From Escherichia coli (GTDB lineage: Bacteria > Pseudomonadota > Gammaproteobacteria > Enterobacterales > Enterobacteriaceae): a stretch of DNA of 64,000 nucleotides. This document shows, piece after piece, positions 1 to 3,000 of the stretch; within the stretch, counting starts at the first letter, position 1, and every line of letters begins with the position of its first letter. A program made the position numbers. The stretch lies in the NCBI RefSeq assembly GCF_030013205.1, contig NZ_CP122648.1. One strand, given 5' to 3'.

Positions 1-3000
1 CGCTGGCGATATTACGTTACTCGATGCCTCACGCCCCTGTTCGCTTTACTGGCAGGAGTCTTCTAAACAGATTTCATTACTTTTACCACGCACTCTGCTG
101 GAACAATATTTTCCCCATCAAAAACCTGTCTGCGCAGAAAGACTGGACGCTGACTTACCCATGGTGCAACTCAGTCATCGCCTGTTACAGGAGAGCATGA
201 ATAATCCGGCACTTTCTGAAACAGAAAGTGAAGCTGCGCTACAGGCGATGGTGTGTCTGCTTCGCCCAGTACTTCATCAGCGGGAATCTGTCCAACCTCG
301 CCGTGAACGTCAGTTTCAAAAAGTGGTTACGTTGATAGACGATAATATTCGCGAAGAGATATTACGCCCGGAGTGGATAGCCGGAGAGACAGGTATGTCA
401 GTACGTAGTTTGTACCGAATGTTTGCCGATAAAGGTTTGGTGGTCGCGCAATATATTCGTAACCGTCGTCTCGATTTTTGTGCTGATGCGATTCGCCATG
501 CCGCAGATGATGAAAAACTGGCAGGTATTGGCTTTCATTGGGGATTTTCCGATCAGAGTCATTTTTCAACGGTATTTAAGCAACGCTTTGGGATGACGCC
601 AGGCGAGTATCGACGTAAATTCCGCTAACTAATTCGCGTTGCATGTACAGCAACGCGAATTAGTTAAAACAGATATTTGACTATGCATTTTTCAGGGCGA
701 AAGGCAATTTGACAGGAATTTTTGAATATTCACCTTGTTTCCGGAAAATAGAATAATCGCCTTCTCCTGTAGCGTTATCCCGATATTGCGGTTTTGCTAT
801 TAAAATTTTCGCACCCATTTACCGTTTATCCCTTGTACATATTCCCCCGGTTTAGCCCGAGCTACGAGCTTTTGCCCGGCGAGTTTCGCGATATCATCTA
901 CCGAGACATTATTTTGCTTTGCCAATTGTTGGTAACTCGCTTTACGTTCGGCATTAATGTCGTTTACTAATTTCTCTGTTTCAGCATCTGTTTTCAGCGC
1001 AACCAGATAACCATAAAATGTTTCCCCTACCCGCCCCTGAGTTCTGGCTTCATCCAGAGTCAATGCCATTACATTGCTGCTTACAAGCCCAACAAGAAAT
1101 GCACAAAGAAGTAATGTTTTCTTCATCATCGCCTCAGAAAAGATCGCTACGAGTCTCAAGCAGCTCTTCGACATCTTTGTCTGCCTTGATGATGATCTCA
1201 TGCTCAATTTTAACGTTCATATTGATAGTGATCGGTTCCTTAGGTGCAGCGACTTCAATGCGAGGCGTACAGCCAACCAGCATAAAAGATGACGTCAACG
1301 CAGCCAGTAAAATTTTCATTGTTTTTCCTCACACTCTTTTCCTTGCGGACAGTCATTTCCCGGCAGACGTGCGTTCTGCTCCAACCATGCCTGGAGATTA
1401 TCGCCAAAGCGTAAACTGCGCCACAGCGTAAAAATATTCTCTTCATGATGGTAATTAAGGTTTACCGTACCGCTTTTACCATCAACGCGACTGGTACCTG
1501 TAATGTTGGCCTGCATGGTTAATAAACCGAGATTATCTAAATTAATATTTGTCGATGAACGGCTAATTTCCATATAGCGCAACCAGTTAATTGCTGAACC
1601 CGCGGTCATATTGTCTTTCACTACCGCATCTGCGGTGTCTTTATCCAGTCGCAAGGTCATTGGTCCACTATTTGCCAGCCAGCCGTCTTTCACTATCCAT
1701 TTTTCATTGTTTAGCCATAACGGCAATGCACCACTAAATGCCCCGGACATGGCGAATTGTTTCGGATTGACGGCGCTAACCAGTTCGCTGGATGAGAGAT
1801 TATTCAGCCGCAACAGCGCCGGGTCATGTTGCGGCATACGTAATTGTTTCATCAGCACGTTACCGCCTAACACATCGACGCTAACATCAGTCAACAGCAA
1901 TGGTTCTTCTTCTGTCCACGGATAGCGCCCTTGCAAATCAGCCGTAATATTTTTCGCTGTCACCAGATTAATCACTTCGGCAATTCGCAACGTAACGGGG
2001 CCGCGAGTCCCCAGATGCCAGGCTCCATCGGCAAAACGGAAAGGCAGGACAAAATCGACACCGTTAACCTGATTATCTGGCATCCAGGCACTACCGCCTT
2101 TCAACACGCCGTGCCCTCCCGCGCGGAATCCTTGTTCAGGCGCAGCAGAAAATGCAACCTGAGCATACAGTTCACCATCGCGTAAGTTCATCTTCCAATC
2201 GGGTGGCACCAGCGGCTGGAATACAGTCAGTGATTGTTTAGGCCACCAGGCGTTACCGCGCAGACGAATACCGTCCCAGCGACCATTTACCCGAACCGGG
2301 CCAATCTCACCAGCATGTAAATCGCCTTTAAAGAGGAAATACGTCGGATCGCGTCCATCGACGCTAAATTTTAAGGTTGATGGCGGTAACACACTGCCGC
2401 CAGTGAACAGCGTTTGCCCGGCGTCCAGTGACAGCGCGCCGCTAAAGGAGGGATGCTGTACGTCACGTACCCAGACGACGGGCTTATCGAGAATTAGTCG
2501 CGGCTTTTCTACCGTCATCGTACCGTATTGTAACTGGTCGAAACCGGTGGAGAGATCGGTCAGCGTAATCGTGCTGTCATGCCACTCACCCTTTCCTGCG
2601 ACATCCCAGGTGGCATTCATCGGTGTAAAACTGCCTTTTCCCCAGTAGCGCCACTGCCAGCGGCCAGCGTCAGGGAGAAAATCATTCGCCAGTCCATCCA
2701 TATGCAGCACGAAATCGCCCAGTTCATTTTCATGCGCCTGCAAAATGGCCTGCAAACGTCCGTCAACACCACGTTGGGTGACTTTTACACCCGCTAAAGG
2801 CCAGCGGATTTCATCGATGTCCAGCGAATCGATGACTCTTCCCTTCGAACGTAATAACGCGCCTGGCTCAAAGGCCAGCGTTGGGTCAGTCAGACTTCCG
2901 CTTAGCTGCGCAGGTAAACGGGCATATAAAATGAGGTCCGCCTGTTTCGCTTCACCGGTCAGCTGCAAAGGCAGCTGGCTGTTATCCATACTTAATTTTC

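Follow-up and report, generated by a model that had tools for sequence, protein, structure and literature searches.

A perfect palindrome at the convergent feaR-ydbL junction of Escherichia coli, most likely an RNA hairpin that caps converging transcripts

In Escherichia coli the stop codon of feaR opens a long perfect palindrome, and ydbL converges on it from the opposite strand. This raises the question of whether the palindrome terminates transcripts, protects their ends, is cleaved, binds a protein, or persists as a DNA structure with no selected function. We addressed this question in the window, i.e. the whole stretch of 64,000 nucleotides of E. coli DNA that was analysed, together with complete E. 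coli genomes, related loci and published K-12 transcript data. The palindrome is most likely an RNA hairpin of an ordinary kind that caps the converging transcripts rather than terminating them. It belongs to an already known kind of element, and within the species it keeps a tidy record of mutations that preserved pairing.

Geometry, folding and distribution of the palindrome

The inverted repeat has two arms of 17 bp (626-642 and 650-666) that are 100% complementary, with a loop of 7 nt between them (Table 1). The first-pass annotation had the loop length and the lack of a trailing U tract right; its 16-bp stem, its span of 627-667 and its start one nucleotide past the feaR stop codon need to be corrected to 17 bp, 626-666 and a start within feaR, as the left arm opens with the TAA at 626-628 (ORF 161..628, feaR annotation). 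This TAA was seen at 120/120 metagenome loci, with a scan pattern that left those bases free. In K-12, where the palindrome lies at 1446340-1446380 of MG1655, a T at 649 creates an 18th pair and a 5-nt loop. Both the window and the K-12 forms consist entirely of Watson-Crick pairs, with zero G.U. No longer perfect inverted repeat is present in the window; in 40 first-order Markov simulations (64 kb, loop 3-10 nt) the longest perfect repeat was 8-11 bp, so that the 17 bp found here lie well outside chance.

Table 1. Features of the feaR-ydbL junction (window positions).
Feature	Position	Strand	Description
feaR CDS, 3' part	1..628	+	AraC-type activator of tynA/feaB; ORF 161..628, annotation in identical/related E. 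coli
Left arm	626..642	.	TAACTAATTCGCGTTGC; starts with the feaR stop codon
Covarying pair 635:657	635..657	.	Genomes: C-G 879, G-C 2730, A-T 129, C.C mismatch 434
Loop	643..649	.	ATGTACA; 643 and 649 polymorphic
Right arm	650..666	.	GCAACGCGAATTAGTTA
Convergent feaR-ydbL spacer between stop codons	629..799	.	171 nt; found only in E. coli
Mild C>G region, 3' of the hairpin in the feaR sense	717..866	+	C 38, G 23
ydbL CDS	800..1126	-	Last gene of ydbH-ynbE-ydbL; annotation and sequence

The fold-energy calculation that the first-pass annotation had proposed gives a stable RNA hairpin, with -31.2 kcal/mol in a 101-nt context (z = -4.0; 0/200 shuffles equally stable) and -25.9 kcal/mol for the whole hairpin alone. 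The hairpin is stable on both strands and in every haplotype (about -18 to -29 kcal/mol, 17-18 bp). Its upper stem (CGCGTTGC/GCAACGCG) is GC-rich, as in an intrinsic terminator, and it forms on both strands between convergent genes, as a bidirectional terminator does. However, the feet (TAACTAATT/AATTAGTTA) have T in 4/9 bases per strand and so lack the A tract and U tract of such terminators. The bases after the stem are AAACAGATATTTGAC, without a U tract, and the sequence past the stem, AAACAGAU on the + strand and GCGGAAUU on the - strand, has no U run directly adjoining it. A consensus scan for promoters and terminators gave no terminator-like hit at the palindrome, which lacks the T run that the scan looks for, and no promoter directed outward from it. 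Rfam 15, searched at a permissive E-value, gave no meaningful match at the palindrome, the sole overlap being a yeast snoRNA model that scored 13.9 bits (E = 4.9; gathering score 40).

The spacer from 629 to about 745 occurs only together with the feaR side. In the feaR-less strain L002 homology begins near 745 and the ydbL 3' region differs: it carries a predicted hairpin of its own and, after this, a U-rich stretch, so that ydbL may have a structured 3' end there too. In the window the ydbL transcript meets the palindrome after 133 untranslated nt. Beyond it, in the ydbL sense, 625-426 contains C 53 / G 41, a C>G bias that is mild, as on the feaR side, where base composition makes 717-866 a possible Rho loading region. 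A literature search on ydbL found nothing on the feaR-ydbL spacer.

The palindrome is single-copy: every haplotype search located it at one place per genome. A search of the window for a second copy (up to 3 mismatches) returned just both arms and one chance-level match with 3 mismatches, and in plasmid and phage collections only misfiled pieces of E. coli chromosome matched. It is kept in 4193/4196 E. coli genomes with this feaR 3' end; one strain has lost an arm via a 15-nt deletion. A search with FeaR through a single genome of each species, in which other Escherichia species and Shigella were not sampled separately, gave four usable loci with the palindrome in none. In Pseudocitrobacter and Pluralibacter the feaR and ydbL stop codons abut and the palindrome is absent; in a divergent Escherichia lineage the spacer is another sequence of 75 nt without a strong hairpin. 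Judged by these sequence comparisons its distribution is lineage-restricted, i.e. it is found only in E. coli.

Transcription across the palindrome

Adams 2021 reported a Rho termination region at MG1655 1446501 (+), antisense to feaR (Rho score 4.03, p = 1.3e-5), with upstream/downstream reads of 54/14 untreated and 87/91 with bicyclomycin. In K-12, ydbL-sense transcription runs through the palindrome, and Rho stops it about 120 nt farther along. The location of the Rho region past the palindrome and the equal coverage with bicyclomycin indicate that polymerase passes the hairpin and that Rho terminates. The Rho-dependent read-through was found on the ydbL-sense strand only, where the Rho-insensitive termination of an intrinsic terminator is not seen (87 vs 91); the feaR-sense strand is uninformative on termination because its expression is low. 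The first-pass view that this is not a simple intrinsic terminator is borne out both by this read-through to the Rho site (Adams 2021) and by the missing U tract.

Transcript 3' ends were also sought directly. In the Term-seq data of Adams 2021 there was no 3' end within MG1655 1445800-1446799 on either strand (LB OD 0.4, LB OD 2.0, M63), and the TERMITe, TRS and SMRT-Cappable-seq supplements had zero entries for the feaR-ydbL locus. The Term-seq check proposed at first pass thus yields no mapped 3' end at the palindrome, which is weak negative evidence because expression of the locus is low.

We tentatively favour the reading that the palindrome acts as a 3' stem-loop which protects or insulates transcripts terminated by Rho. 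Transcription from feaR or from ydbL would give a 17-18 bp hairpin without a U tract, which would release RNA polymerase inefficiently; Rho would terminate farther downstream, where the RNA runs antisense to the opposite gene and is not translated. Exonucleases acting 3' to 5' would then trim the RNA back to the hairpin foot and, we infer, halt there, so that the hairpin would cap and stabilise the mature 3' end and separate the two converging transcription units. It would in this way influence mRNA stability, and the scheme of Rho termination and trimming would presumably also apply in the feaR sense. Dar & Sorek 2018 (NAR 46:6797) described Rho-dependent E. coli transcripts that end just past stable stem-loops without a U tract, followed by mild C>G sequence, with stem and loop lengths resembling those of intrinsic terminators. 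An RNA stability or processing element had been one of the first suggestions for this locus; the stable hairpin, the kept complementarity and the fit to the transcripts of Dar & Sorek speak for it, and the lack of a mapped 3' end speaks against it.

Variation of the arms and alternative explanations

Six haplotypes cover 4172/4196 complete E. coli genomes carrying the palindrome site. The pair 635:657 is Watson-Crick in 3738/4172 of these (89.6%), the remaining 10.4%, BL21 included, having a C.C mismatch in mid-stem. (Strain PD007 was considered as a K-12 with a palindrome mutation and rejected, as it carries the BL21-type allele; it matches the window-type query at 97.1%, K-12 at 95.7%.) The other two variable arm positions show one-sided changes that lead to G.U on the + strand, the T.G state at 642:650 is present in 1352 genomes, and 14 stem pairs are invariant. 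Substitutions on both sides of 635:657 are compensatory, giving CG, GC or AU, and across these genomes arm complementarity is maintained through double substitutions. In a covariation test 36/500 shuffles attained the observed score, so that the evidence for covariation is modest and rests on one pair. Polymorphic positions number 4/34 in the arms and about 27/133 in the remaining spacer, i.e. the arms are not clearly less variable. These two results, the mid-stem C.C mismatch and the lack of the palindrome in relatives count against the protective stem-loop.

The main rival, less probable than the protective stem-loop, is a different origin of the complementarity: the palindrome may have no selected function and be a self-perpetuating DNA structure unrelated to feaR, i.e. 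an inverted duplication produced by template switching and kept perfect by hairpin-templated (quasipalindrome) mutation. Replication or repair would copy a mutation in one arm from the other arm, giving complementary changes on both, and 635:657 would have been rewritten on both arms at least two times. C-G to G-C would have proceeded via the still-segregating C.C form, and C-G to A-T would have followed the feaR deletion. Both double changes are of the transversion type and at the same pair, with no wobble intermediate possible, and DNA-templated correction accounts for them no less well than RNA-level selection does. The A-T lineage shares one deletion junction that had already destroyed feaR, so the switch arose where feaR was a dead fragment. 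The similar variability of arms and spacer flanks, the lineage-specific occurrence of an element that is dispensable in relatives, the arm lost in one strain, and a freedom from G.U in the window and K-12 forms that exceeds what RNA folding needs all point the same way. However, the C.C haplotype persists in its 434 genomes, which represent two or more flank backgrounds, and the T.G at 642:650 remains uncorrected, which indicates that templated correction is not fast here. The haplotypes are also shuffled in a manner resembling short-tract recombination, so that recurrence of the pair changes is not proven, and the mechanism is compatible with an RNA function and hence not exclusive. If true, it would provide a natural population-scale record of hairpin-templated mutation and of palindrome persistence without selection in E. 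coli.

A milder alternative would assign the selected role to the lipid-transport operon ydbH-ynbE-ydbL. Because the perfection of the palindrome persists, and has been renewed, where feaR is dead, a selected function, if there is one, would more probably benefit the ydbH-ynbE-ydbL transcript than feaR, to which the palindrome had originally been tied. It is also retained after deletion of the entire mao-paa cluster, paaX included.

We consider it improbable that the palindrome is a weak bidirectional intrinsic terminator, in which the 8-bp GC-rich upper stem (CGCGUUGC/GCAACGCG) would fold first, with the 3' foot AAUUAGUUA as a poor U tract, and release a fraction of the polymerases arriving from feaR and ydbL on both strands. 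The convergent genes, the GC-rich core, the symmetric A/T-rich feet and a start at the stop codon, as is often seen in compact terminators, would suit such a role, and the tpx/tyrR convergent junction (window 40146-40180) has the same architecture. However, U occurs at only 4/9 bases after the GC core and at 0/7 of the first bases after the full stem, and no 3' end maps to the palindrome. With bicyclomycin, moreover, ydbL-sense coverage downstream equals that upstream (87 vs 91), which indicates little Rho-independent termination in that sense.

A DNA dyad for a dimeric regulator, be it PaaX, another factor of the mao-paa aromatic-amine cluster or a roadblock protein, is very unlikely. The dyad symmetry is perfect, and the window half-sites TAATTC/GAATTA adjoin the PaaX-regulated mao-paa cluster and resemble inverted PaaX hexamers (TGATTC/GAATCA). 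However, the PaaX operator, in the form in which Kim et al. 2004 is cited in PMC9493321, is TGATTC-N27-GAATCA; compared with this quoted form the window has TAATTC-N21-GAATTA, matching 5/6 half-site bases, and K-12, the strain of the PaaX study, has TAATTG-N21-CAATTA, matching 4/6. A PaaX operator was rejected on both spacing and half-sites. The protein-binding dyad proposed at first pass fares no better in general: the symmetric position 635:657 has three Watson-Crick identities, which argues for strand pairing and would not be tolerated by base-specific recognition, the site is at the 3' end of two genes with no promoter, and the palindrome outlives the loss of paaX. In K-12, GTTGCA-N5-TGCAAC has what we take to be a resemblance to CytR half-sites. 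In a comparison by eye, CytR octamers, the boxes of NsrR and TyrR, matS and the direct repeat of FeaR gave no convincing match, and Tus/Ter had only the 7-mers TAACTAA and AATTAGT in common, its GTTGTAAC core being absent.

There is similarly little to be said for an RNA processing site, at which RNase III or another endonuclease would cut the stem or the sense-antisense duplex of the convergent transcripts, so that the feaR stop codon would be lost or the transcripts would become less stable: the duplex is long and perfect with the stop codon inside it, but 17-18 bp is short for efficient cleavage by RNase III. At the tpx/tyrR palindrome the dominant K-12 3' end lies at the hairpin 5' foot, inside the tpx stop codon, and convergent read-through into antisense feaR is documented (Adams 2021); at the feaR-ydbL palindrome, however, zero ends are mapped.

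Comparison with known systems

The palindrome is a landmark for the probable ends of the feaR and ydbH-ynbE-ydbL transcripts. The practical value of this is small; it also serves as a caution for the popular ydbL/mao-paa engineering site, at which deletions or insertions remove or keep a strong hairpin. It offers a small clean case of two questions: how the Rho-terminated mRNAs of convergent genes acquire defined 3' ends, and whether palindrome covariation within a species reflects RNA-level selection or DNA-templated self-correction. The three Watson-Crick states and the 10% mismatched form, across about 4200 genomes, make the question of selection versus templating testable here.

With the bidirectional intrinsic terminators reportedly described by Ju, Li & Liu 2019, the palindrome shares convergent genes, the same hairpin on both strands, a GC core and symmetric A/T-rich feet, an architecture of which the tpx/tyrR palindrome is a local example. 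In contrast to them, its feet are mixed A/T (UAACUAAUU/AAUUAGUUA) with no A tract paired with a U tract, and its ydbL-sense termination is bicyclomycin-sensitive.

A second comparison is with the quasipalindrome (hairpin-templated) mutation hotspots that Ripley, and Lovett and co-workers, have reportedly described in E. coli. Here too complementary changes occur at symmetric positions and a mismatched form coexists with two perfected forms. The differences are that the feaR-ydbL pattern is inferred from natural variation, that mismatched alleles are at 10%, and that recombination confounds the count of events.

REP/BIME elements, which stabilise mRNA 3' ends, form a family of many copies that share a GC-rich consensus. 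Like them, the palindrome is extragenic, lies at a gene 3' end and would be able to block 3' exonucleases. Unlike them it occurs once per genome and has no plasmid or phage relatives; a REP/BIME element, an ERIC-like repeat and a mobile-element end were rejected on these grounds.

To our knowledge, a perfect stem of 17-18 bp is unusually long for a Rho-dependent 3' stem-loop. The hairpin also differs from the stem-loops of Dar & Sorek in that no steady-state 3' end is mapped at it, that a stop codon forms part of its stem and that two transcripts converge on it. Like them, it is stable, lies downstream of a gene without a U tract or an upstream A tract, and has Rho-dependent read-through beyond it on the ydbL-sense strand; the mild C>G bias that follows it may correspond to theirs.

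Structure and setting of the palindrome

The window opens within feaR, which ends at the TAA at 626-628, and the 171-nt spacer between this gene and the convergent ydbL carries the palindrome at its feaR end. Over 500-900 the window is 100% identical to E. coli CFSAN061763 and about 96.8% identical to K-12. The first-pass annotation had described a 16-bp repeat at 627-667 starting one nucleotide past the feaR stop. The inverted repeat exists, with perfect arms and a 7-nt loop, and only small corrections are needed: it comprises 17 bp at 626-666, i.e. the coordinates were off by one, and the first three stem pairs fall on the stop codon itself. 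All other perfect inverted repeats in the 64-kb window are shorter, and in Markov simulations (40 x 64 kb) the longest comparable repeat reached 8-11 bp. The fold-energy check proposed earlier gave -31.2 kcal/mol (z = -4.0) for the palindrome region. As already noted from the sequence, no U run lies 3' of the stem; a terminator scan found nothing at the palindrome, and an Rfam search gave no match for it. The palindrome could be part of either the feaR-side or the ydbL-side transcript, with the same hairpin formed from both.

Positions of features in the window
Feature	Position	Strand	Description
Left arm	626-642		TAACTAATTCGCGTTGC; 17 bp, perfect complement of right arm
Loop	between arms		ATGTACA; 7 nt
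Right arm	650-666		GCAACGCGAATTAGTTA; 17 bp, perfect complement of left arm
Outer helix	602-611 / 672-683		GGCGAGUAUC with GAUAUUUG.AC
45-aa ORF	681-818	-	hypothetical protein WP_021536980.1 in strain E1535
ydbL	800-1126	-	last gene of ydbH-ynbE-ydbL
tpx	39636-40142	+	ORF named from 3' sequence matched to Adams 2021
Second palindrome	40146-40180		AATATGCCTGATGGTG TTG CACCATCAGGCATATT; 16 bp, 3-nt loop
tyrR	40186-41754	-	ORF named from 3' sequence matched to Adams 2021

The minimum-energy fold places a second, weaker helix containing G.U pairs around the palindrome. The 45-aa ORF, which overlaps ydbL at its 3' end, probably reflects an annotation artefact. Second in length among the window's perfect palindromes is the one in the 43-nt spacer between convergent tpx and tyrR. 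In K-12 Term-seq the dominant tpx 3' end (1388306, minus strand, about 463,000 reads; Adams 2021) falls inside the tpx stop codon, i.e. at the 5' foot of the hairpin and not after it, and a strong Rho region runs antisense to tyrR (Adams 2021).

Variation within E. coli

The site is present in 4196/5426 complete E. coli genomes, of which 4172 have one of six exact 47-nt haplotypes.

Palindrome haplotypes, with stem pairs named by window position
Haplotype	635:657	Other differences	Genomes
K-12 type	G-C	T at 649, giving an 18th pair	1403
L012 type	G-C	U.G at 642:650 on + strand	1327
Window type	C-G	none	879
BL21 type	C.C mismatch	T at 649	409
A-T type	A-T	none	129
L011 type	C.C mismatch	U.G at 642:650; T at 649	25

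When metagenomes were scanned with an anchor on the flanks alone, the four commonest haplotypes and the A-T type were recovered, together with a single additional variant (C656 to T, giving G.U on the + strand). Fourteen of the 17 stem pairs are invariant, two vary one-sidedly and stay G.U, and one has three Watson-Crick identities; 635:657 is paired in 89.6% of genomes and mismatched in 10.4%. Hairpin energy across the haplotypes runs from -17.8 to -28.9 kcal/mol. The covariation, which is confined to one pair and whose score was reached by 36/500 shuffles, carries modest statistical weight, and polymorphism of the arms is not clearly below that of the adjoining spacer. Haplotypes and flanking markers occur in mixed combinations, for which short-tract recombination is the simplest account, and recurrent mutation is therefore not proven. 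C642 to T and A643 to G are found only as a pair (1352 genomes), on several flank backgrounds, a pattern that suggests short-tract recombination across the spacer.

Persistence without feaR and distribution

The palindrome had been tied to feaR and does begin at its stop, but pairing is kept beside feaR remnants, making a specific link doubtful. Strain FDAARGOS_497 has the A-T haplotype and retains a 207-nt C-terminal piece of feaR, joined to a paaX remnant; all 12 of the A-T genomes sampled carry the generic helix-turn-helix label of this feaR remnant and not the name feaR. Because the same deletion junction, GCGCTGATAAAG|TTTGCCGATAAAGG, occurs in both A-T and C-G haplotype genomes, the C-G to A-T double change would, barring recombination, postdate the destruction of feaR. 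Most window-type palindromes in the metagenome sample adjoin another feaR remnant, of 252 nt; a 15-nt deletion has removed the left arm in strain 21319, which has this remnant. Judged from these sequences, perfect complementarity persists, and has even been re-established, where feaR is no longer functional; hence either the ydbH-ynbE-ydbL transcript is the RNA that matters or pairing is maintained at the level of DNA.

The adjoining mao-paa aromatic-amine cluster is a known variable region. It (feaR to paaY; window 1-745 and extracted loci L137, L138, L002, L003 and L013) has been lost in E. coli by several independent routes: a 207-nt feaR remnant-paaX fusion, a 252-nt remnant-paaY fusion, an IS1-associated truncation, and complete replacement with homology from near 745. 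The palindrome is retained in the 207-nt and 252-nt forms and in the one IS1-truncated strain examined, and is missing from the complete-replacement form.

Haplotype searches gave one copy per genome, and plasmid and phage searches found no relatives of the palindrome. Relatives were sampled through a FeaR-based scan, one genome per species. The stop codons of feaR and ydbL abut, with no spacer between them, in Pseudocitrobacter faecalis, P. vendiensis and a Pluralibacter, and a divergent Escherichia lineage has an unrelated 75-nt spacer without a strong hairpin. In E. coli strains lacking the whole feaR side, homology to the window starts only near 745 and the ydbL 3' region differs, including a separate predicted hairpin and, after it, a U-rich stretch. 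Because these relatives and feaR-less strains do without it, the palindrome is recent, lineage-specific and dispensable for the feaR-ydbL pair in general.

The abutting stops (L005 and L006, 3404-3409; L007, 3407-3412) read TGA and then at once TTA or TCA, leaving no room for a terminator between the genes. In feaR-less FDAARGOS_536 the hairpin and U-rich stretch (GCUUUAUUUAUU; L002 about 2950-3000, minus strand) are a plausible separate terminator candidate for the ydbH-ynbE-ydbL operon.

Transcript ends and competing explanations

Besides conservation, the first-pass annotation had proposed 3'-end mapping; published Term-seq under three growth conditions places no 3' end in MG1655 1445800-1446799 (Adams et al. 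2021), the palindrome lying at 1446340-1446380. The same study reports a Rho termination region on the ydbL-sense strand at 1446501, a position that is approximate because its Rho windows are 800 nt, with upstream/downstream reads of 54/14 untreated and 87/91 with bicyclomycin (Rho score 4.03). Because bicyclomycin gives full read-through, the hairpin does not terminate transcription efficiently without Rho on this strand and, as the stem is a perfect palindrome, probably does not on the other. With the U tract also absent, the earlier view that this is not a simple terminator is reasonable.

The best-supported mechanism, which we hold tentatively at somewhat under even chances, is a 3' stem-loop that protects and insulates: polymerase would pass through the hairpin, Rho would then stop transcription where the RNA is untranslated and antisense to the opposite gene, and exonucleases would trim the RNA back as far as the hairpin. 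The RNA stability element suggested earlier is a reasonable reading. The data demonstrate a stable structure, Rho dependence for one of the strands and preserved pairing, and we infer that trimming halts at the hairpin and matters for mRNA stability. The main rival, rather unlikely in our view, is a functionless palindrome whose perfection is upheld by hairpin-templated mutation. Such a process would suit the two double changes, both transversion-type and at one and the same pair, one having arisen next to the dead feaR, as well as arms that are not especially conserved; it sits poorly with the mismatched and T.G states that survive in hundreds of genomes.

A weak bidirectional terminator is improbable, as neither the bicyclomycin result nor the absent U tract fits, although the architecture does and is common to the tpx/tyrR palindrome. 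We give very little credence either to an endonuclease processing site or to the protein-binding dyad raised earlier, for which positive evidence is nil and base-specific recognition is disfavoured by the symmetric position with three identities. Neither the spacing nor the K-12 sequence bears out a resemblance to the PaaX operator.

The palindrome has one attractive feature, a well-sampled series of changes within the species that preserve complementarity. This series could be used to tell RNA-level selection apart from DNA-templated maintenance of the palindrome. The closest known class consists of Rho-dependent E. coli transcripts with precise ends after stable stem-loops that lack U tracts and shield the RNA from PNPase and RNase II (Dar & Sorek 2018), and the mild C-over-G bias downstream of the palindrome on both strands is compatible with this class.
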